DNA from: a virus
Lineage: Duplodnaviria; Heunggongvirae; Uroviricota; Caudoviricetes
Length of the DNA: 64,000 nucleotides
Virus record (IMG/VR): IMGVR_UViG_3300031134_000639
Strand: one strand, 5' to 3'
The notes beneath the pieces were generated by a model, which had not been told where the DNA came from, did not search any database, and saw only the letters and a program-made list of their open reading frames with translations. Made by a program: the position numbers and the translations under genes. Positions within the stretch are counted from its first letter, which is position 1. Each line of letters starts with the position of its first letter. Positions 4,090 to 33,652 of the stretch are shown piece by piece.

Positions 4090-4101
4090 TAATGTTGCAG
4101 A

Positions 4102-5180: not shown

Positions 5181-5281
5181 CTTTATTCTCCAAAAATATT
5201 ATCGTACCCCTAGTATAGCATAACTAGGGGTAATTTGAAAGCTAAGTTGCAATCCGAAGGCAAAGTAGGTATACTGGTGGT

Positions 5282-5947: not shown

Positions 5948-5953
5948 CATACT

Positions 5954-6565: not shown

Positions 6566-6737
6566 AAGTCTATTATATCACAGAACAGCAGAATCTTGAG
6601 CGTAGTGCCCGCTAGACTAGTCTGAGAAGCCTCAGGACGGCCTAGGAGCGGAGATATCCTGGTTCTTAAGCGCCTAAGTGTGCTAAGCTGTTGAGAGCTT
6701 ACAGAGCCGCACACGGCGTTATATAAGAGAGAAGAGA

Positions 6738-7355
6738 ATGGTCCAGTTCGGAGATACTAAAGTGTTCATGGAGACACTTAAAGTTATTCTCTGGCATGAG
6801 AATGACTATTCTACTTTAGATGCCCTCAAAACGTTACCTTCCGACTATGTATACTCTATGCTCCAGGACAAAGTAACTAATGAGAAAATTGAAGCAGCCA
6901 TTGTCAAACACAATAACAACTTGATTGACCTATATCTCAATACTCCCGCAGATGACCCAACTTTTGTTGAGATAGCTCGTATCCTTGAATCTCCTTTGGA
7001 CGAAAGTAAAGAAACACGTCGACTCTCAATACGAGAGATGGGGAAAACGCTGAGTGAGCAGATAAGAAATTCGTTAAACTTAGGAGGGGTTAATACAAAC
7101 GACTTGGAGTATAATGACCCTGACGGATTTTATCTCATTTCAATCTCTAATAGGAACAGTCAGCGAAGAGACATATCAGATGACATGATGATCCATTTGA
7201 CCAACCAAACGTATGCTTTTCGCCAGGGTCAAAGATACCTAAAAAATCAGGACCCACTTATGCTCTTTGACTTTTCCGACACGGAGCATAAGATGCATTT
7301 AGATAACTTTTTCCTCATACATAATCTAATGGCAGCGGGTACTAAAAATGTATGA
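6738..7355 (+). CDS. Hypothetical protein 205 aa
   Basis: ORF with 8-nt overlap to the next gene; no recognisable domain. Confidence 0.45.
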   Translation: MVQFGDTKVFMETLKVILWHENDYSTLDALKTLPSDYVYSMLQDKVTNEKIEAAIVKHNNNLIDLYLNTPADDPTFVEIARILESPLDESKETRRLSIREMGKTLSEQIRNSLNLGGVNTNDLEYNDPDGFYLISISNRNSQRRDISDDMMIHLTNQTYAFRQGQRYLKNQDPLMLFDFSDTEHKMHLDNFFLIHNLMAAGTKNV

Positions 7356-7950
7356 GCCTCATCAAGACATTCCCCAGCCCTCACACGAGGAGTTCTTCCC
7401 ACGCCTAATCAGCGACTTTGAAACATATGAGAGCATGGGAACCGAGTTATCTGAACAGTACGCTGAGATGGTATCAGCTGGACTACCTATGTCGTTTGTC
7501 CTTAACCTGCTGTTACCTAAGCCAAAACTTGCAGGCATGTTCGTGGAGCAGTTCACATATATGATGGAACAATGCTCAAAAAATCTGAAGGAAGGCACGC
7601 CCCACGATACTCAGAAGAATTTTAAGTTGCACAATTTTATGGAGGTATCTTCTGCCTATATCCCTAGGAACTTTCCCTATGAAGCAGCGTTAAGAAACCG
7701 CATGCCCAGAACAAACTTTGAGGGCCTGTTAGACAGTAGCTCTTTCTTCATGAGAGAAGCTGGCGTGCGTCTACCTAATTACAAAAGGTTTATCCTAGAC
7801 CTATTTTCTCACGTCACCAATATTGTTGAGATGAAGGATCATCCTTTGACAGTAGATGATGCATATGCTTGGAACTTCATGAATAAAGAGTACACACAGT
7901 TTCGGCATTTACATTCATTCCTAAAAAGTCAGCCGCATGTTTCTAAGTAA
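7348..7950 (+). CDS. Hypothetical protein 200 aa
   Basis: ORF; no recognisable domain. Confidence 0.45.
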   Translation: MYEPHQDIPQPSHEEFFPRLISDFETYESMGTELSEQYAEMVSAGLPMSFVLNLLLPKPKLAGMFVEQFTYMMEQCSKNLKEGTPHDTQKNFKLHNFMEVSSAYIPRNFPYEAALRNRMPRTNFEGLLDSSSFFMREAGVRLPNYKRFILDLFSHVTNIVEMKDHPLTVDDAYAWNFMNKEYTQFRHLHSFLKSQPHVSK

Positions 7951-8020: not shown

Positions 8021-8605
8021 TTACACCGAATTCGTTCTGATGAAGTCTGAAATCCGGGTTACATCACTTCTGCCTAAGCCAAACTTCTCGCATGGTCTAA
8101 CTACCAGATGCGGGGCCGTCATGGAAGACACATGCTCTTCTGCCCACAAGTTAACTGCTTCATCATCAACCCACACGAAAGCTGTGTCCGGGTTGCTTCT
8201 AGCAAAGTTCAGCACCCACTGGAGCTTCTGGTCAGAACGATACGTTTGAATATCCTCAACAGGCAGGAAAGGAGTTGGGGTCCAACTAATCCAACCGTCT
8301 GAGTTTATCCCAAGGAGTTCATCTACCTTTTCGGTTTCGTTAGTCCAAGTGCTAAGCCAATGCCAGACGTAAGCTGTTTCGTCTTTAAGCTTCATGAGTG
8401 TTTCCACAAGTTCATGAGACCAAGAAATATCTTGCCACTTGTAGTCGTTTTTACCCCAGCCACCTGCCACATTGCTGTTGAGCGGGACAGATGCATGTCG
8501 CAGCTGACCGAAAGAGTCAAAGTTTTTGCTGACTTCATTAGGGGAAGTAGAATACCAATTGATGACTCCATCAAAGTCCATGATAACAAAAACTTGTCTA
8601 ACCAT
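8021..8605 (-). CDS. HAD-like hydrolase/phosphatase (paralog of 20527..21060)
   Basis: N-terminal VIMDFDGVINW (DxDG motif I-like), later WLSTWTNE and VWVDDEA. Start set at the internal Met, which is preceded by AGGAAGGAGAG. Confidence 0.45.
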   Translation of the reverse strand: MVRQVFVIMDFDGVINWYSTSPNEVSKNFDSFGQLRHASVPLNSNVAGGWGKNDYKWQDISWSHELVETLMKLKDETAYVWHWLSTWTNETEKVDELLGINSDGWISWTPTPFLPVEDIQTYRSDQKLQWVLNFARSNPDTAFVWVDDEAVNLWAEEHVSSMTAPHLVVRPCEKFGLGRSDVTRISDFIRTNSV

Positions 8606-10017: not shown

Positions 10018-10431
10018 ATGAACTTAGACTCCGATGTGCTCGCAGGGTACGACCCGGTTGAACTCAAAGTAGGCGTTGTGCGCAGCGTTACTGTAGTAGA
10101 CAACGTCTTAGGGATAACTGTGCGAGAAGACAACGGAAAGTTCTTCTTGGACTTCAAAACAGATGAAAGCCTGGCTAAACAAAACAGTCTTTACCCAAAA
10201 GAGAACGATAACGAACTTTTCCTTATAACTCTGTATGCTACTGTTTTCTGTGAGAACAAACCTCTCACAGCTGATTCGTGGGCTGAACGAAAACTTCTGA
10301 AGTTCTGGGAGAAAAACTACCCTAGAGGATTTTTCTATTACTTTACTGAACCCGATGAAGCCTTCTTGGTTGACGACAAAGTTTACACTGTAGAAGTCGC
10401 AATGAAAAGAGTTGGAGAATTTGATGGTTAA
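10018..10431 (+). CDS. Hypothetical protein ~137 aa
   Basis: Start moved to the Met directly downstream of the consensus promoter and RBS; the longer ORF version overlaps the opposite-strand Asp23 gene. Confidence 0.5.
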   Translation: MNLDSDVLAGYDPVELKVGVVRSVTVVDNVLGITVREDNGKFFLDFKTDESLAKQNSLYPKENDNELFLITLYATVFCENKPLTADSWAERKLLKFWEKNYPRGFFYYFTEPDEAFLVDDKVYTVEVAMKRVGEFDG

Positions 10432-11041
10432 CATGAGAACCCCAAACGAAGTTCATTACGCCCTTTTTCAGCATACCGCTGATTACATTCAGGATGAGAA
10501 AGCCCTCACAATGCTAAGTGAATTAGATAGCACACCTGCGCTATACCGTGAACTTATGATTAAACCGTTTCTACGGCCTGTTTTTGTTGACAAGATGTTG
10601 GCCCATAAGTTGGATGCTATCATGGACGCATTATACTCTGACAAAGAGAACGTGGAGCTTTCTACGAAGTTTGCTAACTTTCTGGAAGATTTAGGGAACA
10701 TTAGATTCCAAAGCAGCAAACACAACTTCTATAACGGTATCAGAAGAGTCTATGAAGGTGACCTGAATAAAAGGGAACTCAGCAAGAGGATAGTCAACAC
10801 TTTTGTTGGGCACGATCTCATCCAAGATAATGCCTCCCCAGGGTTAGCAAAGCATGGCACAGCAGCTATCTCTACTGGCCTTGAATTTGTTGCAGGGATG
10901 GCAGTGCTTACAGCCTACGATGTGGTGCCGGACTACTATCTTACACCCACCCATCTTATGGACAAAACAGGTGTCCAGCTTCTGTGGGATTTCTATTTCC
11001 GACTACATTCCATGTATCGCAAAGCAACGTTTACGCCTTAA
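10412..11041 (+). CDS. Hypothetical protein 209 aa
   Basis: ORF overlapping the upstream stop; no recognisable domain. Confidence 0.45.
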   Translation: MENLMVNMRTPNEVHYALFQHTADYIQDEKALTMLSELDSTPALYRELMIKPFLRPVFVDKMLAHKLDAIMDALYSDKENVELSTKFANFLEDLGNIRFQSSKHNFYNGIRRVYEGDLNKRELSKRIVNTFVGHDLIQDNASPGLAKHGTAAISTGLEFVAGMAVLTAYDVVPDYYLTPTHLMDKTGVQLLWDFYFRLHSMYRKATFTP

Positions 11042-11091: not shown

Positions 11092-11751
11092 CTAGAAAGC
11101 TAGTCTTATTCTTTCACCCCAATTAGATGAGATAGGTCTGTGAGGTGAGATTCCATAGTAGCCCCCACCTACAGTTTTCATCATAGCATCAGAATACATC
11201 TGTTCATGCTCAGCTGTAAGAAGACCAGCTTCATCACGGAGAGGAGAAAGAGTGTTCTCTATCTCAGCTTTCAAATCACGGATACTCTGCAACGTTTTAA
11301 GCACCAGGTCATGTACCTTGGTCTCATACTGTACATCGTAAGGCTGGACTACGGTGAAAGCCCCGCTGATGTAAGTATCAAACACAGCCTGCTCAACTTC
11401 GCCTGCGAGTTCACTCCAGGTCTCAAGAGAGGCCTCAAAGCTTTTGGCGTTCTTGCGAGCTTTAACAGGGAAGCTGCGTCCTTTAACGTTCTCTAACTCA
11501 AGTCCTACACTTCTCCAAGAAAAGTATGACTCAGGTGCGGTGAAATAAGTTTTTCCGTCACTGAGCTTAACTCCACCGTCTTCCTTAAGGATGGCTACAT
11601 GGAAGTGTCGCAGGCCATTAGGCGTTGAAAAGTAGTCACGGATACGAAGTACCCCAATGGGGCTAGGAACAATCTGGGCATCTTCCAGGAACTTCTGGAA
11701 CATCTCATTTTTTATTCTAGCAGAAGTGCTGATGTAAGGTGTTTGAGTCAT
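11092..11751 (-). CDS. Family-A paralog, hypothetical 219 aa
   Basis: EDGGVKLSDGKTYFT, FPVKARKNAKSFE. Confidence 0.6.
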   Translation of the reverse strand: MTQTPYISTSARIKNEMFQKFLEDAQIVPSPIGVLRIRDYFSTPNGLRHFHVAILKEDGGVKLSDGKTYFTAPESYFSWRSVGLELENVKGRSFPVKARKNAKSFEASLETWSELAGEVEQAVFDTYISGAFTVVQPYDVQYETKVHDLVLKTLQSIRDLKAEIENTLSPLRDEAGLLTAEHEQMYSDAMMKTVGGGYYGISPHRPISSNWGERIRLAF

Positions 11752-11778
11752 AACTCCTATTTTATCATACTTTTGAGG

Positions 11779-12396
11779 TCAGTGCCAGCTGACTTTCATT
11801 GTAATAGCAGGTTGGAGAGGTCTCGTCCAGTAAGCCCAACCCTGACCGTTATTAACCGGGAACATTCTTTCGTGCTCCTCATACAACTCAGTTGCTTTAA
11901 GCGTTAAAGCCTCAACAGCTTTTGTCATCTCGTTCTTCATCTGAAGGAACTTTTGGTTCTTTTCAACCTGTAGATCATGCACTTTTGTTTCATACACAAC
12001 ATCCCAAGGGAGGATAGAAGACATGCCTCTACTGATGTAAGCTTCAAAGATTGCTTTTTCAACTTCCTGACCCTGTTCAGACCATACTGCAAGAGCAGGT
12101 CCAAGGCTTTTACCAGAGCCTTTTCTTGCTTTCAGAGGAAAAGTATCTCCCTTAGTGTTTTCAATTATGATACCACTGCTTGTCCAACTGAAGAACCTAT
12201 CAGACGTGGTAACATATGTTTTACCATCACTCAGTTTCAATCCGCCGTCTTCAGGCAAGACAGCAACGTAGAACATGATCAAGCCATTTTCCATCATAGA
12301 CGGAATCTTACGGACACGGATGGCTCCAACGGAAGTAGGAACGAGTTCACTGTTTTCCATGAAATCAGTGAAGTATCCAGATGGGGAGTTTGTCAT
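11779..12396 (-). CDS. Family-A paralog, hypothetical ~205 aa
   Basis: EDGGLKLSDGKTYVT, FPLKARKGSGKS; start trimmed to an internal Met. Confidence 0.55.
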   Translation of the reverse strand: MTNSPSGYFTDFMENSELVPTSVGAIRVRKIPSMMENGLIMFYVAVLPEDGGLKLSDGKTYVTTSDRFFSWTSSGIIIENTKGDTFPLKARKGSGKSLGPALAVWSEQGQEVEKAIFEAYISRGMSSILPWDVVYETKVHDLQVEKNQKFLQMKNEMTKAVEALTLKATELYEEHERMFPVNNGQGWAYWTRPLQPAITMKVSWH

Positions 12397-12479
12397 ACTA
12401 GCATTATACCATAGTCGCAGTCCGACTGTCCAGCCCAAATTGTGCACAATGACATATTCAAGTCTCCCGAAACAACTGC

Positions 12480-13127
12480 TTAAAAAGCTAGTCTAATATT
12501 GTTTGCAAAGCCTGAGTGGATTGGGCGTTCAGCTGGCGTGTGGTACTTACCTGGTTGAAGCACAGGATAATTCGCTTCATGCTCCTCTGATAACTGTGAT
12601 GCTTCGTCTGCCAGGCTTTTGACGCTTGCTTCCACCTCAGCTTTGAAATAGCGAAGTGTGTTTACTTTCTTGATCACGAGATCATGAACTTTTGTTTCGT
12701 AGGCTACGTCAAAAGGCTGGCAGAAACTCACGCTGCCGCTGATGTAGCTATCAAAAATGGCTTGCTCCACCTCGCTTGCAAGAGTGCTCCAAGAGTCCAA
12801 AGAAGACTCAAAACCTTTTGTTCCCTTACGCGCTTTCACAGGAAAATTGCGTCCCTTAGCATTGTCCAGGTTGAGTCCGCTGCTCGACCATGAAAACATT
12901 GCTTCCGGCCCAGTAAAGTAAGTTTTTCCGTCACTGAGTTTTAAACCGCCATCTTCAACGAGGATGGCGACACTAAAACTGCGGCAACCATCGGTAGTAG
13001 AGTAATTGTCAGCAACTCGTATAACACCAACTGGGGTTGGGACAATTTCAGCTTCAGTCATGAACCGTCTGAAAGACTCTGACTTCCATGAGCCGAGTGA
13101 ACTAAAGGAAGGAGTATTAGAAGTCAT
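12480..13127 (-). CDS. Family-A paralog, hypothetical ~215 aa
   Basis: EDGGLKLSDGKTYFT, FPVKARKGTKGFE; close paralog of 11092..11751. Confidence 0.6.
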   Translation of the reverse strand: MTSNTPSFSSLGSWKSESFRRFMTEAEIVPTPVGVIRVADNYSTTDGCRSFSVAILVEDGGLKLSDGKTYFTGPEAMFSWSSSGLNLDNAKGRNFPVKARKGTKGFESSLDSWSTLASEVEQAIFDSYISGSVSFCQPFDVAYETKVHDLVIKKVNTLRYFKAEVEASVKSLADEASQLSEEHEANYPVLQPGKYHTPAERPIHSGFANNIRLAF

Positions 13128-13212
13128 AGCTATATGATACCAGAAAAAGGTTACCAAAGCAAGCTAACAACTGTTAGAACACAACACTAAGCAAGCATGC
13201 TACAATAGTCAA

Positions 13213-13806
13213 ATGGATTCCTACAGAGACCAAGAAGTGTACTCAACGCTATATGAGCACATCTATGGCGTGAAGCCTACCAGTGTAGATGACGAAAGTA
13301 TCATAGAACTAAGAAAACAAGAAGTACCTGATACGTACATTCGGGGTCTCACTGAAGTAAAGATTGACGGTCCTAAGCTAACCAGGATGCTTAACTCCAA
13401 AATTCGTACCGTGCTGGAGTACGCATGGAAGAACCCAACCGGTGAGCACTTTGATTCAGTAGTTAGCCTGCTTAAGAAGATAGATGAAACCAGAGATGTA
13501 CAAAGTGTATACTTGTTTGCGTATCTAATGAAGAACCTACAAGCAGAAAACATGAGTTACCATGATGGGATGACACAACAGGAGGTAGCTGACTATCTTA
13601 CCTCCATATTCTGGGAGCATTCAATCATTCGCGGCATGGTGGAGGCTTTGTTGGAGTTCCAGGTAACTATAAGGCTATCAAGGCATTTTCCAGCTTCAGA
13701 GCAGTATGACAAGCTTGGTAAATTAATGCCATCATGGACCAAATCTTGGGCGAACTATTTAGAGCTTCACCAGGTATACGAATCAATCAAACATACCTGC
13801 TCTTAA
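13213..13806 (+). CDS. Hypothetical protein 197 aa
   Basis: ORF only. Confidence 0.45.
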   Translation: MDSYRDQEVYSTLYEHIYGVKPTSVDDESIIELRKQEVPDTYIRGLTEVKIDGPKLTRMLNSKIRTVLEYAWKNPTGEHFDSVVSLLKKIDETRDVQSVYLFAYLMKNLQAENMSYHDGMTQQEVADYLTSIFWEHSIIRGMVEALLEFQVTIRLSRHFPASEQYDKLGKLMPSWTKSWANYLELHQVYESIKHTCS

Positions 13807-13814
13807 GTCTGTAT

Positions 13815-13860
13815 ATGTGGAGGAGGGTGACACACAATTGTGTGCCACCCTCCTCCACAT
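13815..13860. terminator. Hairpin atgtggaggagggtgacacac-aatt-gtgtgccaccctcctccacat
   Basis: ~20-bp inverted repeat between convergent genes. Confidence 0.65.
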
Positions 13861-13866
13861 AGTTGT

Positions 13867-14514
13867 TTAAGGCTTGACGAAAGTGTTCAAAGGGAAATCA
13901 TCCCGACCGCGCCATGCTGCGTTCTGGGTAACATGGTTAGCGCGAACATACTTCAGGACCTTCCAGGGGAAGTCATCATAGGCGATGGAGCCAGCGTCAC
14001 GGATAACGAACCCTTCTGAGGTCTCGCGGTCGTGAGAGCGACCCCAAACCTTAGTGGCCTCAGTGAAGTCTGTACCACGGTAAAGGACTGGCACCATGCT
14101 GAGTCCAAGCAGTTCGCACCACTCGGTTGCTTCATCCCACGGAAGAAGAACATCATCCTGCCAGATTCCGAACACCATGAAAACAGAGGGCATGTCATCG
14201 TAGCTGATTGCCTTGCGGGCGTACATGTTCTCACCAGAAATGCGCATGTTCGCTGGAATGTCCCAGCGAAGTTCTGACCACAGCTTTCGCATGGGAGCGT
14301 CCCACAGATTAGTGGTTGCATCCACAGAACGCCCATAACTGAATTCACGTCCAATTGTGTAGTTTGAGCCGTCCAATTTTTCTGTGACAATGAGTTCAAT
14401 ACCGCTCTGAAGGTAGGCGTGAGCCTCCGGGCTGCCCATCTTGTCATCTGAGGTCATCCCCAGGCTACCCTTCCAGTGACTGGTTCGGGGGTACTTCTTA
14501 CGCTGAGCATCCAT
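13867..14514 (-). CDS. ATP-dependent RNA ligase (minimal Rnl2/Rnl5-like nucleotidyltransferase), ~215 aa
   Basis: KYPRTSHW, motif I EKLDGSN, motif III FMVFGIW, motif IV EGFVIRD, motif V WKVLKYVRANH. Start at the internal Met, preceded by AAGGAGGTGA. Confidence 0.75.
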   Translation of the reverse strand: MDAQRKKYPRTSHWKGSLGMTSDDKMGSPEAHAYLQSGIELIVTEKLDGSNYTIGREFSYGRSVDATTNLWDAPMRKLWSELRWDIPANMRISGENMYARKAISYDDMPSVFMVFGIWQDDVLLPWDEATEWCELLGLSMVPVLYRGTDFTEATKVWGRSHDRETSEGFVIRDAGSIAYDDFPWKVLKYVRANHVTQNAAWRGRDDFPLNTFVKP

Positions 14515-14617
14515 TTGGCTCACCTCCTTAGTTGGCTGAGATTTTAGTTTATCACACAGTAAACGATGAAGCAAGCTCCGCCCTATTAAAACCTGCTGAA
14601 TGTGATACACTTGTCTC

Positions 14618-15109
14618 ATGAACAACTTCAATTTTGATTACCAAGTGTTCGTGGACGGCTCCTCCGGGTTCATAGCCTATTTGCCTATTTTAAGTCTGAT
14701 GATAGGTTTCGTCGCACTGCTATTTGGTGTAATTATGTTCTCAATGATCTCCAAGGCCTTACGTATCTTGTGTTTCTCTGTTTTTGTTGCCGCAGCAATC
14801 ACATCATGTTTTGGTTTCAGCTTTGATGCATCCGAAGAAAAACGGGCTGACGGTATCTATGCTTACAATGTTTCTAGTGTAAGCAATTGGGCTGAAAGCA
14901 ACTACGGTATTAGGATGCCACAAAGTGAAGTTGAGTATATGCTTGGTGTAAATGAGCCAGCTAGGACTCTTCTGAGGCCTCCTTCTCTAGACCCTGCTGA
15001 TGACGATGTTTTCTACTCAGCCTACGGTGTAGACAGTTCAGGTAATACAGTTGAAGTCACTTTAACAGCCATTGATGGAAACTTTAAGCTCGTTACTCTG
15101 AAGGACTAA
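14618..15109 (+). CDS. Membrane protein, family-C paralog, 163 aa
   Basis: Two N-terminal hydrophobic helices; C-terminal region aligns with 15159..15689. Confidence 0.5.
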   Translation: MNNFNFDYQVFVDGSSGFIAYLPILSLMIGFVALLFGVIMFSMISKALRILCFSVFVAAAITSCFGFSFDASEEKRADGIYAYNVSSVSNWAESNYGIRMPQSEVEYMLGVNEPARTLLRPPSLDPADDDVFYSAYGVDSSGNTVEVTLTAIDGNFKLVTLKD

Positions 15110-15158
15110 GCTGCATAAGCCCGAACCCGCTTAACCTGGCTGCCTAAACTAGAAGTTA

Positions 15159-15689
15159 ATGTGCTATACTTCCTATATGCGTAGTTTTAACTTTGAGGTC
15201 GCCCCGTTCCCAGCTGAAATACCATTTTTCTTCACCGGCCCAGGTCCTGCAATTTTTATTGTCCTCAGTCTTGTAGCCGCCTGTCTGAGCTTATGGGCAT
15301 GGACGGACTTTGGTGACTACAAGACTAGGAAAGGCCTTATCATTGCTCTGGGGCTAACATTTGCGGGTGCTGGATTAGTTGTAGGAGCAGTGTGGAACAT
15401 ATACGCTCTCGCTTCCCGCTCTGGCTCAGTAGATGCTGCATATGGGCAAACAGCACTCAACGTTTCTGAGTGGGCTAACGAAAACTATGAGATGCAGATG
15501 GATGGTCAGCAGGCGATGAACCTGGTGTACAACTATGATTTGTCAGCTGAAAGCGCCGGGTTGTTAGAGTACGGTAAGACTAAGACTCTCAACGCTGAGG
15601 GTGACGTTATTGAAGTTCAACTTGTGAAAGTAAACGGAGTCTACAAACTTCTCAGCACGGATGTAGCTGAAATTCCGTTACCTGAGTAG
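15159..15689 (+). CDS. Membrane protein, family-C paralog, 176 aa
   Basis: Hydrophobic N-terminus; ...NVSEWANENYEMQMDG...EVQLVKVNGVYKLLST parallels the neighbouring ORF. Confidence 0.5.
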   Translation: MCYTSYMRSFNFEVAPFPAEIPFFFTGPGPAIFIVLSLVAACLSLWAWTDFGDYKTRKGLIIALGLTFAGAGLVVGAVWNIYALASRSGSVDAAYGQTALNVSEWANENYEMQMDGQQAMNLVYNYDLSAESAGLLEYGKTKTLNAEGDVIEVQLVKVNGVYKLLSTDVAEIPLPE

Positions 15690-15698
15690 ACCGAGTAA

Positions 15699-15742
15699 GC
15701 AGAAGGGGTGTAACCATAATCTTGTGGTTACACCCCTTCTGC
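15699..15742. terminator. Hairpin gcagaaggggtgtaacca-taatcttg-tggttacaccccttctgc followed by ttttg
   Basis: 18-bp perfect inverted repeat plus T-tract. Confidence 0.7.
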
Positions 15743-15758
15743 TTTTGTATGCAAAGTC

Positions 15759-16076
15759 TTAGTTGAACATGGACTTAGGGAGAATAGGCTCCTCTTGTAG
15801 TCTCTTAGATTCGCCACTGGCGAGAGCAACTGGTGCTGGAGTGTTGCCGACTGCTAAGATTTCTTCAGTCTCCTTGTTTTTGAGGGTCAGCATGTTCTTA
15901 CCTAAAAGTAAGATGCTTGCTCCATATAGTGCGGTAACCCCGAAGGTGCTAACGAGAGGAAGCAATATGGGTGACGCTACAGAGATGGCAGTAATGAGAA
16001 CACCACCTAAGATAACCCCTCCAGCTGCTTTCATAGTCTGCTGAGGAGTTATCTTGCTAACATTTTTTGTGCTCAT
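15759..16076 (-). CDS. Small membrane protein 105 aa
   Basis: Two predicted TM helices. Confidence 0.4.
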   Translation of the reverse strand: MSTKNVSKITPQQTMKAAGGVILGGVLITAISVASPILLPLVSTFGVTALYGASILLLGKNMLTLKNKETEEILAVGNTPAPVALASGESKRLQEEPILPKSMFN

Positions 16077-16090
16077 AGTTCTGCCTTGTC

Positions 16091-16675
16091 TTAGTTGAAT
16101 AGGGTGCGGGGAAGAATTGTTGTTGGCGTTTTAGCCATTGCTTTTTGTGCGCGAGTGGCTGTCATCTGCTTTTTCTGAGGTAATGGCACAACTTTTCTAG
16201 TTAGAACGCCTTCACCAGTAGTGTCATACCGCATACTGAGTTTAGTCAGGTTTTGCTTGTCGGAGTAGGCAGTGCAGTTGAGCGTAAGAAGAGTTTCAGC
16301 TTGCTGGTCTGTGAGGTTTATGCCGTAAACTTTTCGGATATGACCTTGGAAGTCTGATACATATGTGTCCAGCTGCTTGTTATACTCAATGTCGCTCTTT
16401 GCTTTCTTGTGAGAAGAAAGTATTTCATAGGTTATAAACCCAGTTGCGAGTACACCAAACCCAGCTGATCCCATAGCTATGACGTTTGGTGCCATGAGGA
16501 GTAAACCAGTCAACCCAGTAGCTGCTGTCGTTGAACCCATGGTCACACTCTGTACCACGTGTGATAGCTTGGTGTTAACAACCTGTCGTGGGAGTAGGCC
16601 CTCTGGCTTTCTGTAAGCTGGTTTACCAAGGTTTCCTTCAACTGGTTTCACAGCTTTGTAGTTCATGTCAGTCAT
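16091..16675 (-). CDS. Membrane protein 194 aa
   Basis: Central hydrophobic helices. Confidence 0.4.
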   Translation of the reverse strand: MTDMNYKAVKPVEGNLGKPAYRKPEGLLPRQVVNTKLSHVVQSVTMGSTTAATGLTGLLLMAPNVIAMGSAGFGVLATGFITYEILSSHKKAKSDIEYNKQLDTYVSDFQGHIRKVYGINLTDQQAETLLTLNCTAYSDKQNLTKLSMRYDTTGEGVLTRKVVPLPQKKQMTATRAQKAMAKTPTTILPRTLFN

Positions 16676-16679
16676 TCTT

Positions 16680-17369
16680 TTACTTTACCATATCCCGGCT
16701 GTGCAGCTTTATAATTTGCTGGAAACTTACCCAGCGGTTCAACGAGTCCAAGGTATTCCGGGTTAGCCAATGAATGCCCGAATAGTCCTCTTTCAGGTTT
16801 ATACAATTGAAATCGTGAGGTAGAGGGCGGAAGATATCACTTGCCACCCTCTGAAACAGTAACTGCGATTCCATCATGAAAACACGCATCGCCTGGTTCA
16901 ACGGTTTATGGTGTGACTCTTGTTTGAAAATTGGGTGGAGCATAATCCGGTCAATGGTCTCGTAAATTTCATCCTGGCTCTTTAACTCAGGGTCATAACG
17001 TAGTTGCAGAATGTCTTTGTGCCATTCTTCATTCCTTTTCATGTTCTTTGTGAAAAAGGGGCGACTTATCACATACGGTTCGCGGAATGCATTTATAACC
17101 GGATCTGAGATAGGTTTTCCATACTCTTTGTCGTATATAATGTGTTTGACCAAGATAGTACGGTAGAAAACGTTCCAGCTAGACAGTCTTTCTTGCAGTA
17201 AGCTTAAACTGTGGTTCACAGCTGTCTCCCACCGGTCTAGCTTTATCACGTCCGGCGACAGGAGCTTCATCTGAAGCTCTTCAGGGAGACCCTGGCACTC
17301 TGTAGGCACCACATATTCTGTGACCTTAGAGACCAGCTGAAAGTAGTGATAGTTAGTGAAGATATGCAT
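16680..17369 (-). CDS. Hypothetical protein 229 aa
   Basis: ORF only. Confidence 0.4.
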   Translation of the reverse strand: MHIFTNYHYFQLVSKVTEYVVPTECQGLPEELQMKLLSPDVIKLDRWETAVNHSLSLLQERLSSWNVFYRTILVKHIIYDKEYGKPISDPVINAFREPYVISRPFFTKNMKRNEEWHKDILQLRYDPELKSQDEIYETIDRIMLHPIFKQESHHKPLNQAMRVFMMESQLLFQRVASDIFRPLPHDFNCINLKEDYSGIHWLTRNTLDSLNRWVSFQQIIKLHSRDMVK

Positions 17370-17372
17370 AGC

Positions 17373-17642
17373 TTAAAGCAGCCCAAGCTCCCAGACTTTA
17401 CGCTTTCTAGGGTCAACTATCTGAATCACTCTACCCGCAGCCTGCTCATCGTCTAGATACTTATAGACTGCTATGACTCTCCTGATAGCTTCTGTGAAAC
17501 TGATACCATGCCTGTCTGCAATATCCTTCAAAGCCATCGCAGTCTCTTCATTTAAGTTTACGCTCAAACGGACAAGGTCAGCCCGCATCTGTGGAGTCCA
17601 TGTTCTTCCACCTGAAACTGCACCTTGCTCTTGTTCGCTCAT
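17373..17642 (-). CDS. Small DNA-binding-like protein (RHH/CopG-like?), 89 aa
   Basis: MALKDIADRHGISFTEAIRRVIAVYKY resembles ribbon-helix-helix or antitoxin-like regulators. Confidence 0.35.
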   Translation of the reverse strand: MSEQEQGAVSGGRTWTPQMRADLVRLSVNLNEETAMALKDIADRHGISFTEAIRRVIAVYKYLDDEQAAGRVIQIVDPRKRKVWELGLL

Positions 17643-17731
17643 AGCTCCATCATATCATGTTTACGGGTTGACACGGTGAAGTGTTTCTGATATCTTTACA
17701 GTATCCGCTTTCCACTACTTTAGGAGACCCT

Positions 17732-18061
17732 ATGGCTGACTCTGTTGCAACTGTTATGAACATCTCCTATGTTCCCGCTCCTGGAACAACGATTTGGTTC
17801 GTCTCCCAGGATGAGTTCACAGAGGGAATGGAGATCAGCGGTGTTGTCACAAGTGTCAGCCTCACACACATCAAGGTTGATGTTACCAACGGTGGTGGCG
17901 TAGAAGGATGGACTATTCCGCTCAATGAGCCTAACAGCCCTTTCTTCTCCAGCCGCGAGGATCTTCTGGATGACCTCTCCTTCAAGCTGCACCAGGAGAA
18001 CCTGCGTCTTACTCGTGAGAACCAGTACTACCGTGCCAGGTACGGTCCTCTCCCTGAGTAA
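17732..18061 (+). CDS. Hypothetical protein ~109 aa
   Basis: Start at the Met preceded by AGGAGA; GC3-rich. Confidence 0.4.
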   Translation: MADSVATVMNISYVPAPGTTIWFVSQDEFTEGMEISGVVTSVSLTHIKVDVTNGGGVEGWTIPLNEPNSPFFSSREDLLDDLSFKLHQENLRLTRENQYYRARYGPLPE

Positions 18062-18777: not shown

Positions 18778-19686
18778 TTATTCGTCTTCAACCATCTGGA
18801 TGATCGTAATCTTTTTCCTCTTCGGGAATGCTGGGTTGAGGTAGTGAGACCCCTTTGGCCTACCATCAGGGTATGAGGATTTGAAAGTTACCTGACGTTT
18901 GCCGACAACAGTGAACTTGCTATCCCGGTTCAGTAGCACTTCGCGTTCTGCGTGGGTGACTGAACCGGAGAAATCTTCGCTTTTGTGTACAGGTACACCA
19001 TTGCGGGAGATAATTTCGTAGACAACACTTTCTTTGTCGCTGCCGTTGAAGCACAACATGAGGTCAGGGTCTAAGCTAGTGGACATGTACGACTTGTCAG
19101 TGAACGTGTCACCGACTTCAAGTTGTTTGATATCGTCATTAAGCTGTACTGTCCTGTATAGTCTGCGGGCATTATTCTCAGGGCGTTTATATGCAGCGAA
19201 GACAGCATCCATTTCCTCAACACGGTTGATTGCCATTTTTTCGTATCTACGTTTCGCAGCGGGAACATCACCGAACATGCTAACAGGGTCATTAAAGCCA
19301 GTGTCAATATAGTTGCTAATACCTTTTTCGCCATCACGTAGGTACATGTTCAAATACTCATAGTTGTTGGAGTAGAAACGTACTGTGTCAACTAAATCTT
19401 CGCTGTAGTTGTCTTTGAAGTAGTCAGCTTCAGTGTCAAGCTGTTGAAGTTCAGGTGGCTTAACTGCGGGGTCAGCGTTGAAACCAGTGAGGACAGCCTC
19501 TTTGCTTGGGGTTGCATCAGGGAAATGAGATGCAGGTACTTTGGATATAGCTTTCGCTATTGTCCTAGCTTTAGGCTCAACTAGGAGTGGCCCGAACTTT
19601 TTCTGGAGAGAATAGTAGAAGCCATGCTTTTTACATGTGGGGCCTGTGTAACATGTTGAACCGTCAGGCATTTTTGTTGCAGTCAT
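18778..19686 (-). CDS. Mono-ADP-ribosyltransferase (R-S-E/C3-like ART domain), divergent member, 302 aa
   Basis: C-terminal YRTVQL (Arg), SYMSTSL (STS) and AEREVLLNR (ExE), same catalytic signature as the 36-49 kb array. N-terminus has C-x5-C-x2-H (TCYTGPTCKKH), similar to the array leader. Confidence 0.65.
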   Translation of the reverse strand: MTATKMPDGSTCYTGPTCKKHGFYYSLQKKFGPLLVEPKARTIAKAISKVPASHFPDATPSKEAVLTGFNADPAVKPPELQQLDTEADYFKDNYSEDLVDTVRFYSNNYEYLNMYLRDGEKGISNYIDTGFNDPVSMFGDVPAAKRRYEKMAINRVEEMDAVFAAYKRPENNARRLYRTVQLNDDIKQLEVGDTFTDKSYMSTSLDPDLMLCFNGSDKESVVYEIISRNGVPVHKSEDFSGSVTHAEREVLLNRDSKFTVVGKRQVTFKSSYPDGRPKGSHYLNPAFPKRKKITIIQMVEDE

Positions 19687-20526: not shown

Positions 20527-21060
20527 TTATGCCTGTGTCAGTGTCCTAAGGAAGCTCTCCATAGTATCAAGGTCCTCTAGGGTTAGACCTGTGAGACTAT
20601 TTGGGGTGAGGAGGAGTCCTTCAGCGGTAGTATTGTTCTGCACTAGCTCGCCATGGTACCTGTGGGCATTGTCGTCAACCCAGATGAAAGGTAGAGGGTC
20701 CTGTGCTTGGTCTGCGATGATGGCAGCAGCTTTCCATGCTGTCCACTCAGCTTTGTCTTTAGCAGCCTTGTTCAAGGCAGCAGGTAGAACCCTGCCGTTG
20801 TCTAGACCTTCAAGATGAGCAGCAAGTTTGAGTACATGGCTAAACTCGTTCCATGTGCTTCCCCAGACAAGCTCCAGGCCGTACTTTTCTCGGAAGACTT
20901 CAATCATAGTCACAACAGTTGGTGAGTATGTGATGTGGTTCACGGGAGCCAGATGGTCGCTACCTTCGATAGGAATCTGGAAGCTTTTGATGCTCTTGTG
21001 GGTAGGCTCTTTGGCGTTAACTACTCCATCAAAATCAAAATACAGGCGAGCTTTAAACAT
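20527..21060 (-). CDS. HAD-like hydrolase/phosphatase (paralog of 8021..8605)
   Basis: YFDFDGVVNA, WGSTWNE and FIWVDDNA mirror motifs in 8021..8605. Confidence 0.45.
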   Translation of the reverse strand: MFKARLYFDFDGVVNAKEPTHKSIKSFQIPIEGSDHLAPVNHITYSPTVVTMIEVFREKYGLELVWGSTWNEFSHVLKLAAHLEGLDNGRVLPAALNKAAKDKAEWTAWKAAAIIADQAQDPLPFIWVDDNAHRYHGELVQNNTTAEGLLLTPNSLTGLTLEDLDTMESFLRTLTQA

Positions 21061-21113: not shown

Positions 21114-21575
21114 TCAAAGTCGCATGTATGTAGCCAGGAACGCTTCAGCTTCAATGATGTAGCGCTCTTCGCCTGCCTCATCAAAGTCGTTCTCAATAGC
21201 TGTAGCTATCATGCAGTTGGCTTTACCGCGTTGGATTTCTCCCCAGGGAGCATCAATTTCAATGTCTGTGTTGAAAGGGCTTGGGATAGCTCTGATTAAT
21301 CCGACAGCTTTCCACACTTGGTACTCTTGTGTTGACTCATAACGTTTGTTGAAAACGTCAGGCTTGAGAACATACTTTTCACCTGTGGGATTAGTCACAA
21401 GGTAGTCGCCAGGTTCAGCATCGTTGACAGTCTCAAGGAAGCCATCTGCGACAATGGTTTCAATTCTTGTTTTGCTGTTCATCCGCTCTGCTACCACGGT
21501 CCCAACTTTTGTGTAAACATATGAGTTGTTGAGGGCGTCAGTGATCTCTTGTGTGAGCAGGTCAACTTTGGTCAT
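21114..21575 (-). CDS. Hypothetical protein 153 aa
   Basis: ORF only. Confidence 0.4.
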   Translation of the reverse strand: MTKVDLLTQEITDALNNSYVYTKVGTVVAERMNSKTRIETIVADGFLETVNDAEPGDYLVTNPTGEKYVLKPDVFNKRYESTQEYQVWKAVGLIRAIPSPFNTDIEIDAPWGEIQRGKANCMIATAIENDFDEAGEERYIIEAEAFLATYMRL

Positions 21576-25938: not shown

Positions 25939-27411
25939 ATGTGCCAACCTCAATCAGAAGGCGGACGCCGTTGCAACGGTCACACACCATACGGTGTTGC
26001 TCGTCGTAATTTGCAAGCCCAAAAGCAATACCATGAGCACCGACTCACTGACAACCAGTTAACCGAGAAGCAGCGAGCTAAAAGTGAGAAAGGCTTAGAA
26101 GAAGCCGTTAACGGTCTCAACGAACTCTCTGAAGAGAAGAAAGCTCTAGGAACAGTCAAGCCGTACGTCATGAACTTGACTCCGAACACAGAGAAAGTAC
26201 TCAACCAGCTGGAAGCAGATGGTTTCACTCCCTACATTGTGGGAGGCTCAGTGCGTGACGTTATCATGGGCTTAGACTCAAAAGATGTTGACATTGAAGT
26301 GTACGGCGGTCAGCCTGAATCCATTGCGAAGTCTCTGAGAAAAATTGGTCACGTTGACGAGGTAGGAAAATCTTTTGGTGTGTTGAAGATTGCCATAGAC
26401 GGTGAAGACTTTGACGTTTCCCTTCCGCGAACTGATTCAAAGATTGGTGACGGGCACAAAGGGTTCTCAGTTGAGGTTAACCCTGACTTGAGTTTAGATG
26501 AAGCCACAGCTCGAAGAGATTACACAATCAACGCTTTGATGTACACTCATAGGCTAGGTTTCATCGTGGATAAGCACGGCGGACTTAAAGACCTTGAGAA
26601 TGGTCAGCTGCGTCACGTCTCGGAAGCTTTTGACGAAGACCCTCTGCGTGTTCTCCGTGGTGTTCAGATGGCATCCCGTTTTGATATGGAAATGCACCCT
26701 GACACGGTTGCTCGTGCACAGAAGCTTAAGTCATCCTTCAACGACTTAGCTACAGAGCGTGTAGCTATTGAGTTTGATAAGCTACATCTCAAAGGCAAGA
26801 ATGCCAGACGTGCATTCAAAGTTCTTCAGGCTACTGGTTGGGATTCTAACTTCCCTGGGTTAGCTGAGATTAATGATGAGAAGCTTCACACTGACTTGTC
26901 CAATGCTCACCATGTTGCTGACCGTGAGAGTCTAGACAACCAGGACAAGACTGTTCTAATCACGTCTATGATTACCTCTAAGATGAATCGCAAGGATCGT
27001 GAGAAGTTCCTAAAGTCAACTGTTATTGGTGAAAAAACACAGGGCATCATTCGTATCCTCAGTGAAACTAACTTACCAGAGAAGCAGGACTCTGCAAGCA
27101 TGCGTTTCTGGGCAGATGACCTAGGTAAAGTAAGTATCCGTAACTACAGTCACATGCTTGAAGCCCAAGGCCGAAAAGATGAAGCAAAAAGCTTGCTAGC
27201 TAAAGCTGAGGCAGTTGGTATTGCTGACCGTGCAGAAGCAGGAATGATTCAAGGTAGAGATGTTATAGCTCGCCATCCTGAAGTTAAAACAGGTCCTTGG
27301 TTAGGGAAAATGCTGAAAGCTGCGTTGCATGATCAGTACAATGAGAAGTTCAGAACACAGAAGCAGGCTGACCAGTGGTTAGCAGATAACATGCCTAAGT
27401 TCTACAACTGA
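25939..27411 (+). CDS. CCA-adding tRNA nucleotidyltransferase / poly(A) polymerase-family enzyme with N-terminal Cys/Arg-rich leader, 490 aa
   Basis: GFTPYIVGGSVRDVIMG...DVDIEVYGG (Pol-beta NT motif), RRDYTINALMY, plus HD-like C-terminal half. N-terminus MCQPQSEGGRRCNGH shares the array leader. Confidence 0.8.
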   Translation: MCQPQSEGGRRCNGHTPYGVARRNLQAQKQYHEHRLTDNQLTEKQRAKSEKGLEEAVNGLNELSEEKKALGTVKPYVMNLTPNTEKVLNQLEADGFTPYIVGGSVRDVIMGLDSKDVDIEVYGGQPESIAKSLRKIGHVDEVGKSFGVLKIAIDGEDFDVSLPRTDSKIGDGHKGFSVEVNPDLSLDEATARRDYTINALMYTHRLGFIVDKHGGLKDLENGQLRHVSEAFDEDPLRVLRGVQMASRFDMEMHPDTVARAQKLKSSFNDLATERVAIEFDKLHLKGKNARRAFKVLQATGWDSNFPGLAEINDEKLHTDLSNAHHVADRESLDNQDKTVLITSMITSKMNRKDREKFLKSTVIGEKTQGIIRILSETNLPEKQDSASMRFWADDLGKVSIRNYSHMLEAQGRKDEAKSLLAKAEAVGIADRAEAGMIQGRDVIARHPEVKTGPWLGKMLKAALHDQYNEKFRTQKQADQWLADNMPKFYN

Positions 27412-33004: not shown

Positions 33005-33652
33005 ATGCGTAGCATGATTATTGGTGGCGACCTTGACAACACGATGCTGGCCTACACTGAGGGCCTTTCAGACTTCATCGCTAAGGACCTCGGGGTGACC
33101 GACCGTGAGGCGCACGCTCTCGCTTATGGTCCTCCTGCTGACTACGCCATGTCCAACTGGCCTGGCTTCCCTGAGGCGTTCACCGACTTCCACACCCGTG
33201 GTGTTGTAGATGGCCTCTACACCCGCCTGAAGCCTTTCGCTGACGTGAGCAAGTACCTCTGGAAGCTCTCCAACGAGGGTTGCCACATCCGCATCATCAC
33301 CTCGCGTTTCGTGAAGAACGGTCAGAACTCCATCGTCGTCCGCGACACGGGTATTTCCCTTGACGCTAACGATATCCCCTACCGTGACATTGTGTTCACG
33401 GATATCAAGGCGGATATCTTTGCAGACGTGTACCTGGATGACTCGCCCTCCAACATCGTAAAGCTCCGTGCGGCTGGCCGTAAGGTCATCATCTTTGATG
33501 CTCCCTACAACCAGGAGTTCGATGGTCTCCGTGTCCACAACTGGGAGGAAGCATACACGATGCTCCACGACATGGCGGTGAAGTTCAACCGTCGTCAGAA
33601 GCAGCTGGACACTCTCAAGCGCTTCAACCCGCTGAAGCTCATTCGCAAGTAA
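33005..33652 (+). CDS. HAD-superfamily 5'(3')-deoxyribonucleotidase-like phosphatase, 215 aa
   Basis: MIIGGDLDNTML (DxDxT motif I), later DD motif in VYLDDSPSNI; markedly GC3-rich codon usage compared with neighbours. Confidence 0.55.
   Translation: MRSMIIGGDLDNTMLAYTEGLSDFIAKDLGVTDREAHALAYGPPADYAMSNWPGFPEAFTDFHTRGVVDGLYTRLKPFADVSKYLWKLSNEGCHIRIITSRFVKNGQNSIVVRDTGISLDANDIPYRDIVFTDIKADIFADVYLDDSPSNIVKLRAAGRKVIIFDAPYNQEFDGLRVHNWEEAYTMLHDMAVKFNRRQKQLDTLKRFNPLKLIRK

Follow-up and report, generated by a model that had tools for sequence, protein, structure and literature searches.

A stand-alone RNA-ligase domain of the SAK clade in a probable dispersed RNA-repair set of a very large phage-like element

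Phage RNA-repair systems and the present locus

Jumbo phages carry Rnl1- and Rnl2-family RNA ligases, stand-alone SAK HADs, polynucleotide kinases and CCA-adding enzymes (Iyer et al. 2021, Viruses 13:63, PMC7824862), and in XacN1 there are three Rnl2-family paralogues (PMC7824862). The SAK RNA-repair proteins were defined computationally by Burroughs & Aravind (2016, NAR 44:8525), a definition that we take in the form in which PMC7824862 cites it; their domains lie together in one polypeptide. In the T4-type healing-and-sealing pathway, Pnkp and an RNA ligase act against anticodon nucleases, and operons of Rnl1-like ligase, Pnkp and ligase in Micromonosporaceae hold relatives of the ligase described here. 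In our search of the literature we found no biochemical study of stand-alone members of this ligase clade, no characterised minimal RNA ligase and no experiments on SAK proteins.

Here we analyse a 64,000-nt stretch of DNA (the window) from a phage-like genome of at least 885 kb. It encodes a stand-alone, 215-aa RNA-ligase nucleotidyltransferase domain of the SAK clade, with an Rnl2-like fold, at 13867..14514 on the minus strand; XacN1 ORF260 is a 216-aa homologue. The sequence evidence makes it reasonably probable, in our view, that this ligase belongs to a dispersed, non-operonic RNA break-repair set of a very large phage-like element. Its combination of genes matches the jumbo-phage kit of Iyer, Anantharaman, Krishnan, Burroughs & Aravind (2021; PMC7824862), although the genome is far larger. 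Because of this match the finding is solid but not surprising: it mainly confirms a pattern already predicted by comparative genomics, and adds an element of at least 885 kb to those for which the jumbo-phage RNA-repair counter-defence kit is predicted.

The locus differs from both described arrangements. Unlike the SAK proteins, it has separate genes spread over about 20 kb; the kinase, 2H and PTP modules of those proteins are missing from the window, which instead encodes stand-alone HAD_SAK_2 proteins. Compared with the T4-type pathway, a ligase and candidate 3'-phosphatases are encoded, but no 5'-kinase is present in the window, and in place of the Pnkp HAD there are stand-alone phosphatases of the SAK HAD type, which have no match to a Pnkp profile.

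The ligase gene and its catalytic domain

Translation of the minus strand of 13867..14514 gives a 215-aa ORF, MDAQRKKYPRTSHWKG...NTFVKP-stop, and the plus strand of the same interval has many stops. All five peptides that an earlier note on this DNA had picked out in a 215-aa ORF (KYPRTSHW, EKLDGSN, FGIW, EGFVIRD and WKVLK) are present in this translation. A Shine-Dalgarno site, read from the sequence as AAGGAGGTG, lies at 14521..14529 on the minus strand, 6 nt 5' of the ATG at 14514-14512. A longer in-frame version of the ORF reaches 14619/14631 and overlaps a divergent gene starting at 14618; its N-terminal extension is unmatched by the homologues, which start at most 7 residues from M1, and gene calls made independently arrive at the same 215 aa. 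The Shine-Dalgarno site, the homologues and the gene calls thus fix the start at 14514. At the other end of the gene, a 22-bp terminator-like hairpin (13814..13861; RNA fold -44.1 kcal/mol, z = -10.2 versus shuffles) separates it from the convergent ORF 13213-13806(+), from which we conclude that the ligase gene is a monocistronic unit. A sigma-70 promoter scan gave a result no better than shuffles, and the terminator scan run with it reported no site next to this gene and so overlooked the 13814-13861 hairpin.

The protein matches Pfam PF09414 RNA_ligase (E 2.2e-22, 80.4 bits, cut-off 27) over residues 40-189, which cover profile positions 2-170 of 171, and matches phrog_34045 with E 1e-46; its homologues number 489 at E at most 1e-5. 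Judged by sequence, this family match is far beyond chance. The motifs are complete: motif I is E45-K46-L-D48-G49-S-N51, motif Ia R62-S63, motif III G94-E95, motif IIIa F115-G-I-W118, motif IV E167-G168-F-V170-I-R172 and motif V K188-Y-V190-R191. In an alignment of 32 homologues 37 positions are invariant, K46, D48, G49, R62, E95, E167, G168, K188 and R191 among them, and F115 is nearly so (at least 90%). Motif V had earlier been given as WKVLK; the peptide is there, but only its final Lys (K188) is invariant, followed by V190-R191, and K185 varies across the family. Outside the standard motifs the family conserves a clade-specific N-terminal K7-Y-P-R-T-x-H13 and a C-terminal tail, R191..H194-V..W201-R-x-R204-D-D206. 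The evidence supports the conclusion that the ORF is an intact protein of the covalent-nucleotidyltransferase RNA-ligase family, with K46 in KxDG.

Searches of PDB sequences, whether with the protein itself or with its family profile, returned no solved relative, only noise matches to PRORP and F420 oxidoreductase. A megablast of positions 12000-18000 against phage records gave no match, the genome was not found in the searched phage and IMG/VR collections, and among the ligases of deposited phage records none exceeds 41% identity to the window ligase. The modelled protein has the fold of the ligase-type nucleotidyltransferases, and its structure alignments (168-177 residues) are with catalytic domains only, which supports the view, at the level of the model, that it consists of the catalytic domain alone. 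RNA ligases ranked above DNA ligases in both structure searches. This bears on the idea that the protein works as a minimal DNA ligase, or seals nicks in RNA-DNA hybrids, when the giant genome is replicated or repaired. We regard this as very improbable: the protein has no OB domain, the fusion partners of its relatives (below) are RNA-end-healing domains, and a full-length NAD+-dependent DNA ligase, LigA, is encoded 40 kb away (54715-56745), so that a role in DNA replication for the small ligase is unnecessary.

The description of the protein as Rnl2/Rnl5-type in the earlier note holds at the level of the fold but does not extend to family membership. The ligase scores 13.3 bits against TIGR02307, the Rnl2 equivalog (cut-off 197), and 15.1 bits against TIGR02306, the DRB0094 equivalog representing Rnl5 (cut-off 151), and the accessory domains of both families are missing. 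An hhalign comparison of the ligase family profile with T4 Rnl2 residues 1-231 was not significant (probability 1.7%), so the placement near Rnl2 is a structural one. T4 Rnl2 (catalytic domain 1-249; PDB 1s68, 2hvq) has a C-terminal alpha-helical domain, whereas the window ligase ends at residue 215 without one, and its motif V is K-x-V-R where that of T4 Rnl2 is K-x-K. Rnl5 enzymes (Deinococcus DraRnl, Naegleria NgrRnl; PDB 5cot) have an N-terminal OB-like module of about 125 aa, which the window ligase also lacks, its K46 being only 45 residues from the N terminus.

The accessory domains matter in the characterised enzymes, whose catalytic domains, when isolated, are incomplete. DraRnl without its N domain keeps 8% of nick sealing and 4% of adenylylation but still seals pre-adenylylated nicks, thus losing overall ligation while retaining step 3 (PMC1807946), and the step profile of T4 Rnl2 is altered when its C domain is removed (noted in PMC1807946). 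The window protein, which has the catalytic domain alone in its model, could therefore be limited to self-adenylylation, to 5'-adenylylation of RNA or to sealing pre-adenylylated ends, or a separate specificity subunit could replace the accessory domains of Rnl1-5. About one quarter of the viral ligase homologues do have an extra N-terminal domain of about 130-150 aa (the CcrSC and ME3 proteins are of 359 aa), for which we found no Pfam match, and its presence suggests that such a module matters. The occurrence of both a small and an Rnl1-like ligase in the Actinoplanes operon likewise hints at a non-redundant, specialised step. We nevertheless think an incomplete ligase improbable: the stand-alone form is the commonest architecture of the clade and is highly conserved (63% mean column identity), the clade-specific basic C-terminal tail could supply RNA contacts, and in phages there is no conserved adjacent partner gene.

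Relatives of the ligase, their fusions and their operons

The ligase clade comprises 587 cluster representatives at E at most 1e-30, about half of them stand-alone. We surveyed fusions in 44 multidomain close relatives, with E at most 1e-46 to the clade profile. In 12 of the 44 the partner is an AAA_33 P-loop domain of the polynucleotide-kinase-like type; 2H-SAK occurs in three, PTP-SAK in two and HAD_SAK_1 in one, and there are single cases of a PolyA_pol head and of tRNA_lig_kinase. Most of the invariant motif residues of the window ligase are unchanged in these 44 proteins too. The SAK and AAA_33 fusion proteins match the clade profile with E 1e-46 to 1e-66 and have the same invariant residues, KYPRTxH, KxDG, EG.V.R and K.VR..HV being kept in the multidomain SAK ligase modules, and phmmer with the window ligase finds these fusion proteins with E 4e-45 to 4e-62. 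The window ligase thus lies close to ligase modules fused with SAK healing domains; we base its assignment to the SAK clade on the Pfam domain names (HAD_SAK_1/2, 2H-SAK, PTP-SAK) together with the 2021 review (PMC7824862).

Operons of the relatives show the same association. In all of 80 Micromonosporaceae genomes a T4-type Pnkp gene (kinase plus HAD_PNKP) lies directly 5' of the ligase homologue, and in 57 of the 80 loci an Rnl1-like ligase precedes the kinase-HAD_PNKP gene; these 80 operons, being from one bacterial family, represent roughly one evolutionary event. Adjacency of Pnkp and ligase is also seen in two phage contigs (L128 and L162). Viral ligase homologues otherwise have no conserved neighbour: among 121 flanking proteins from 62 non-redundant loci, no Pfam family was found more than twice. 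A tblastn search of the 8 kb to either side of 80 loci found a CCA enzyme in four, Pnkp in two and an Rnl1-like ligase in three, a co-occurrence which, the L128 and L162 adjacencies aside, is not clearly above chance for large genomes.

End-healing enzymes, CCA-adding enzyme and genome context

Three HAD proteins of the window had been put forward as possible helpers of the ligase, and the suggestion survives for two of them. The first is a stand-alone HAD_SAK_2 phosphatase of 177 aa (20527..21060, minus strand; PF18143 E 1.5e-9, 38.8 bits, cut-off 27.5) with HAD motifs I (DFDGV) and IV (WVDD), which makes it a candidate RNA 3'-phosphate end-healing enzyme. The second, of 194 aa (8021..8605, minus strand), is a borderline member of the same family (PF18143 E 5e-6, 27.4 bits, cut-off 27.5; precomputed label 'HAD_SAK_2 (weak)'); it has the same motif I (DFDGV) and motif IV (WVDD), has weak similarity to the first HAD around motif IV, and is a possible second RNA-end phosphatase. 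The third (33005..33652, plus strand, 215 aa) drops out of the set, as it is an NT5C-type 5'(3')-deoxyribonucleotidase (PF06941 NT5C, E 2.2e-22), most likely serving nucleotide metabolism rather than RNA repair.

The statement in the earlier note that no polynucleotide kinase P-loop was to be seen is borne out throughout the 64-kb window by motif, tblastn, phmmer, profile and Pfam searches. A scan for Walker A motifs found only RadA-like and FtsK-like proteins and two chance sites; tblastn of the window with Actinoplanes Pnkp found no kinase; phmmer of the window against 48 multidomain and Pnkp proteins matched the ligase only; a Pnkp profile HMM gave nothing below E 0.3; and precomputed Pfam annotation of matching contigs included no kinase. 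The 64-kb window of this genome of at least 885 kb has no kinase, 2H, RtcB or Pnkp, and within these 64 of at least 885 kb no 5'-OH polynucleotide kinase is encoded with the ligase. With the usual kinase partner of the clade missing from the window, either its gene lies in another part of the genome, or the host provides the activity, or the breaks that are repaired do not require it. This raises the question of where the kinase is, or of which host nucleases make breaks that need none.

The remaining partner is encoded at 25939..27411 on the plus strand, where a CCA-adding enzyme had been reported; it is indeed a class II tRNA nucleotidyltransferase by its PolyA_pol head, its motifs and its phrog_2244 match, CCA addition being its predicted specificity. 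The 490-aa ORF has its catalytic region at residues ~99-477 and matches Pfam PolyA_pol (2.9e-22), PolyA_pol_RNAbd and tRNA_NucTran2_2, as well as phrog_2244 'tRNA nucleotidyltransferase' (E 2e-59). The best CCA-enzyme model, NF009814 'CCA tRNA nucleotidyltransferase', gives E 1.4e-52 and 179 bits against a cut-off of 290, and the PcnB poly(A) polymerase model also matches (124 bits). The class II head, body and tail are present, with the motifs GGSVRD, DVD (DVDIEV), RRDYTINA and DEDPLRVLR (EDxxR-type).

We propose that a break would be repaired as follows. Ends carrying a 3'-phosphate would be turned into 3'-OH ends by one or both of the stand-alone HAD_SAK_2 proteins. As in all Rnl-type ligases, to which the window ligase is homologous, K46 would attack ATP to form ligase-(lysyl)-AMP; the AMP would then be transferred to the RNA 5'-phosphate, and attack of the 3'-OH on AppRNA would reseal the break, the window ligase thus joining 3'-OH and 5'-PO4 ends. 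The class II CCA-adding enzyme could restore trimmed tRNA 3' ends. An RNA-repair role for the ligase is well supported by inference; its use of ATP, its RNA (especially tRNA) substrate, the cooperation of the four proteins and their counter-defence purpose are points that we infer.

The grouping of ligase, CCA enzyme and HADs into one kit, as the earlier note had it, draws strength from the fusions in relatives and from the Pnkp-ligase operons of 80 genomes, but the window genes themselves are unlinked, 5-12 kb apart: the distances from the ligase gene to the HAD genes and the CCA-enzyme gene are 5.3, 6.0 and 11.4 kb, and some lie on other strands, in separate transcription units. An alternative is that they are accessory genes of a giant genome with no functional connection. 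In that case the CCA enzyme would serve tRNA maturation or maintenance, acting on phage-encoded tRNAs without CCA or in normal 3'-end turnover; the HADs would act on nucleotides or metabolites; and the ligase would be used for another kind of reaction on RNA, for instance closing 5'-P/3'-OH nicks, processing RNA or circularising it, independently of any healing pathway and of host anticodon nucleases. The absence of operonic linkage and of a kinase in the window, the heterogeneous neighbours of the ligase across phages and the clear nucleotidase character of the 33005 HAD are in keeping with this, as is the far greater frequency of CCA enzymes, found in 488 phage records compared with 25 for this ligase. 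We consider it unlikely all the same, although with a real chance of being right, given that fusions or operons repeatedly join the ligase clade to end-healing domains, SAK HADs and a PolyA_pol nucleotidyltransferase among them, and that two of the window HADs belong to the SAK-specific HAD family and not to nucleotidase families. No tRNA or tmRNA genes and no Rfam families were found in the window, so that nothing local points to phage tRNAs or to Y-RNA-like partners.

The CCA-type enzyme has an extra N-terminal extension of about 80-98 aa, opening with an MC-x6-GGRRC-x2-H leader which it has in common with at least 14 ADP-ribosyltransferase paralogues; when the 44-aa leader of the ADP-ribosyltransferases was used as a query, no candidates were found. 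A bolder version of the proposal, which we hold to be rather unlikely, is that the 215 residues suffice for complete RNA ligation, which would make this the smallest polynucleotide-ligase architecture known, that the enzyme works in a kinase-less kit of a near-megabase phage-like element, and that the leader may mark proteins for a common fate. On this proposal the KYPRTxH peptide and the basic C-terminal tail would replace the accessory domains that characterised Rnl1-5 enzymes need, and the shared Cys/His leader might direct packaging and co-injection, allowing tRNA repair from the moment of infection. Were the single-domain ligase complete, it would set the minimum that RNA sealing requires, could make a compact tool enzyme, and would be the first biochemical anchor for some 600 to 2,700 sequence clusters annotated by inference.

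Returning to the dispersed RNA-repair set that we favour, the order CCA enzyme, HAD, ligase is kept in four independent assemblies. In a related element, a ligase homologue (P0030) and a homologue of the 20527 HAD (P0280) probably share one contig of 907,852 nt, as judged by length, the contig of P0280 being as long as the longest contig recorded for P0030.

A stand-alone ligase with an intact active site

All of the peptides quoted in the earlier note are present in a 215-aa ORF at 13867-14514, read from the minus strand; the plus strand of this interval is crowded with stops. The element AAGGAGGTG lies 6 nt upstream of the ATG at 14514, and the length of 215 aa is given independently by metagenome gene callers. 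A longer in-frame ORF (to 14619/14631) was rejected: it would enter a divergent gene starting at 14618, and the extension is not shared by homologues. Seven bases beyond the stop, the ligase gene and the convergent gene 13213-13806 share a hairpin of 22 bp (13814-13861; -44.1 kcal/mol, z = -10.2), so the ligase forms its own transcription unit.

The protein matches Pfam RNA_ligase PF09414 (E 2.2e-22) and phrog_34045 (E 1e-46) and has 489 homologues at E<=1e-5, far beyond chance. In an alignment of 32 sequences 37 positions are invariant, including K46, D48 and G49 (motif I), R62 and S63 (Ia), E95 (III), E167, G168, V170 and R172 (IV) and K188, V190 and R191 (V), with F115 (IIIa) nearly so; the active site is thus intact, on a bare catalytic domain. 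Where motif V had been read as WKVLK, the last lysine holds but K185 varies across the family. Clade-specific conservation is seen in an N-terminal block (K-Y-P-R-T-x-H) and a C-terminal tail (R-x-x-H-V...W-R-x-R-D-D).

The description of the protein as ‘Rnl2/Rnl5-type’ is right for the fold but not for family membership: it scores 13.3 bits against the Rnl2 model (cut-off 197) and 15.1 bits against the Rnl5 model (cut-off 151), and has neither the domain that Rnl2 carries at its C-terminus nor the module found at the N-terminus of Rnl5. Alignment of the ligase family with T4 Rnl2 by hhalign gave a probability of 1.7%, and no relative of solved structure was detectable by sequence. A rival reading, in which the protein seals nicks in DNA or in hybrids, is disfavoured: a full-length LigA is encoded at 54715-56745, the protein has no OB domain, and the structure ranking also speaks against it.

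A clade profile searched against 1.84 billion cluster representatives recovered 2,742 members at E<=1e-3, of which 587 reach E<=1e-30. Among the top 150, around half stand alone and are 200-230 aa long; many of the rest (310-370 aa) have an additional N-terminal region of ~130 aa with no Pfam match, and some are multidomain proteins of 450-2,800 aa. When 44 of the longer members were scanned with Pfam for extra domains, the ligase was found fused to an AAA_33 P-loop kinase in 12, to 2H-SAK in 3, to PTP-SAK in 2, and once each to HAD_SAK_1, a PolyA_pol head, tRNA_lig_kinase and a 2H domain of the 2'-5' RNA ligase superfamily. Pfam describes these fused domain families as named after the ‘Swiss Army Knife’ (SAK) RNA-repair proteins; thus, judged by the architectures of its relatives, the window protein is the SAK ligase module in the form of a separate protein.

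Whether one domain would suffice for ligation is the main biochemical doubt. When DraRnl lacked its N-terminal module, nick sealing fell to 8% and adenylylation to 4%, yet pre-adenylylated nicks were still sealed well (PMC1807946). The window protein may catalyse only part of the reaction, or may depend on a further partner; this doubt is countered by the stand-alone architecture being the one most often found in the clade and the best conserved.

The homologues of cultured jumbo phages, Caulobacter phage CcrSC gp219 (locus L090, 3548-4627) and Acinetobacter phage ME3 gp200 (locus L092, 3545-4624), are proteins of 359 aa in which an additional N-terminal domain of ~150 aa, with no Pfam match, gives a layout resembling that of Rnl5. 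In CcrSC an HNH endonuclease gene comes next after the ligase homologue.

End-healing partners in relatives and candidate partners in the window

The best 80 genomic loci of ligase homologues are all from Micromonosporaceae, mostly Actinoplanes (45-51% identity). In every one, a 298-aa kinase and HAD_PNKP protein of the T4 Pnkp type ends at the start of the ligase gene, and in 57 of them an Rnl1-like ligase precedes Pnkp. The partners of the clade, in fusions and operons alike, are RNA end-healing enzymes, and the gene order of these bacterial operons is independent support for a link between the ligase and end healing, although the loci, being of one lineage, have about the weight of a single evolutionary event. 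Pnkp is again the direct neighbour in two viral contigs that are unrelated (L128 and L162); otherwise no dominant neighbour was found across 62 non-redundant IMG/VR loci, and in phages the ligase gene mostly stands by itself, as in the window.

The Rnl1-like ligase, Pnkp and small SAK-type ligase form a conserved, translationally coupled operon (~4030-6630 in each of the chromosomal loci L002-L081), which usually adjoins a nitric-oxide-synthase oxygenase gene, with rho and prfA near. A bacterial repair operon that combines two distinct RNA ligases in this way is apparently unstudied.

The earlier note had joined the ligase to a CCA-adding enzyme and to three HAD phosphatases. The first of these, a 490-aa protein at 25939-27411(+), has Pfam PolyA_pol head, PolyA_pol_RNAbd and tRNA_NucTran2_2 domains and the motifs GGSVRD, DVD, RRDYTINA and EDPLRVLR; it matches phrog_2244 (E 2e-59) and nearly the whole of the NF009814 ‘CCA tRNA nucleotidyltransferase’ model (E 1.4e-52; 179 bits, cut-off 290). 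Its domains and motifs place it among class II tRNA nucleotidyltransferases, with putative CCA specificity. As for the HADs, 20527-21060(-) is a HAD_SAK_2 protein (38.8 bits, cut-off 27.5) and 8021-8605(-) a borderline one (27.4 bits), both having DFDGV and WVDD motifs, but 33005-33652(+) is an NT5C deoxynucleotidase (Pfam E 2.2e-22) which most likely belongs with the nearby ThyX and NrdH/I/E nucleotide-metabolism genes rather than with RNA repair. Directly upstream of the HAD gene at 20527, and co-oriented with it, is a gene for a PGDYG-domain protein (PF14083, function unknown; 21114-21575(-)), after which come an unknown ORF of 253 aa and an ADP-ribosyltransferase (ART), an order kept in four assemblies.

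The reported lack of a polynucleotide kinase was confirmed for the 64 kb of the window, the genome itself being much larger. Apart from two chance sites, the Walker A motifs all belong to RadA-like and FtsK-like proteins; a Pnkp profile HMM gave no match below E 0.3 in the window; the ligase was the only match when all 213 window ORFs were compared by phmmer with SAK multidomain proteins and Pnkps; and no kinase was found in the precomputed Pfam annotation of contigs matching the window. This suggests that either: a kinase is encoded elsewhere in the genome; or a host kinase is used; or the breaks already have 5'-phosphates.

The ligase shares a region of conserved synteny with candidate SAK-type 3'-phosphatases and a tRNA 3'-end nucleotidyltransferase. 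We infer, with good support, an RNA-repair role for it: K46 would be adenylylated by ATP and the AMP moved to an RNA 5'-phosphate, after which attack by the 3'-OH would seal the break; the HAD_SAK_2 proteins may remove 3'-phosphates and the CCA enzyme may rebuild 3' ends, the presumed purpose being to undo the damage that host nucleases do to tRNA or other RNAs of translation; tRNA cut by anticodon nucleases, as proposed in the earlier note, is a possible target. The genes may instead serve unrelated auxiliary functions, with the CCA enzyme in tRNA maturation, the HADs acting on metabolites and the ligase in another RNA task; the absence of local linkage among them would agree with this, but the recurrent fusions with end-healing domains do not fit.

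The genome that carries the ligase

The HAD at 20527 (100% identical), together with a ligase of the window protein's 90%-identity cluster, is found on contigs of up to 885,359 nt, among them ENA ERZ27247443 k141_624373 and JGI 3300031088 Ga0308157_10000032, and the CCA-HAD-ligase arrangement was assembled independently on contigs of 163, 512, 625 and 663 kb; the window is part of this large element. The nearest ligase relatives (55-59% identity) lie on other contigs of 0.2-1.0 Mb, consisting mostly of ORFs with no Pfam match along with ADP-ribosyltransferase, PARP and DNA-methylase genes. A HAD homologue is on a 907,852-nt contig and the longest ligase-homologue contig is also of 907,852 nt, which suggests that a single related contig carries both.

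The element was not found in the IMG/VR collection searched (best ligase match 51% identical) or in GenBank phage records, and we saw no virion or viral hallmark genes in the window, so that its identity as a phage is no more than plausible; if it is a phage, it would be among the largest known. In deposited phage records ligase homologues (31-41% identity) are confined to jumbo phages and contigs of huge phages, such as Atu_ph07, Caulobacter CcrSC-like phages, XacN1, SCTP-2, RsoM2USA, ME3 and LR7565xx contigs.

RNA-repair sets of jumbo phages, comprising Rnl1/Rnl2-family ligases, stand-alone ‘Swiss-army-knife’ HAD phosphatases, polynucleotide kinases and CCA-adding enzymes, have already been described, with three Rnl2-family paralogues in XacN1 (Iyer et al. 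2021; PMC7824862); ORF260 of XacN1 (216 aa) is a homologue of the window ligase. The window ligase therefore falls within an already predicted kind, and is a divergent new case of this computationally predicted set, in an unusually large genome. The remaining interest lies in the stand-alone clade members, for which we found no experimental study in the literature.

The window also holds a DNA and nucleotide-metabolism cluster (50765-51532(-), 54715-56745(+), 61756-64000(+), 46980-48311(+) and 49358-49879(+)) with ThyX, an NAD+-dependent LigA with BRCT, NrdH-NrdI-NrdE (running beyond the window end), a RadA/Sms-like ATPase with a zinc ribbon and a NERD nuclease. Envelope-associated or actinobacterial-flavoured genes (27877-32863(+) and 60668-61453(-)) encode DUF2637, NlpC/P60, a prepilin-peptidase N-terminal domain, a 560-aa SPFH/flotillin protein and bPH with SHOCT; these, and the affinity of the ligase to Micromonosporaceae, hint at an actinobacterial host despite the G+C content of 45%.

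Paralogue arrays and a shared leader

At least 14 ART paralogue genes (products of ~280-320 aa) lie at 36004-46054(+), 48324-49181(+) and 18778-19686(-), twelve of them in a nearly uninterrupted tandem array; ADPrib_exo_Tox (Pfam) was matched directly for 36004 and 18778 and in precomputed matches for three more. An ADP-ribosylglycohydrolase gene (35030-35902) is immediately upstream of the array. To our knowledge, such an expansion in one element is unusual.

The ART paralogues, ORF 34009 and the tRNA nucleotidyltransferase (N-terminus, 25939-26230) begin with a leader, MC-x(2-7)-G(G)RRC-x2-[H/Y], then NARRRxxY, which the ligase and HADs lack; an ART on a related 880-kb contig (L082) begins MCYPKPGPRCSAH. 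The leader may form a zinc knuckle or serve as a targeting/packaging signal; when it was searched against a database, no match was obtained.

Several tandem families of ~200-aa paralogues are found at 310-3983(-), 5954-6565(-), 11092-13127(-) and 6738-7950 / 10424-11041 (+). They have no Pfam or PHROG match, and many share an N-terminal ‘P-[TS]-x-[YV]-G-x-[LIF]-R’ motif; similar arrays flank the ligase homologue on another contig (L093).
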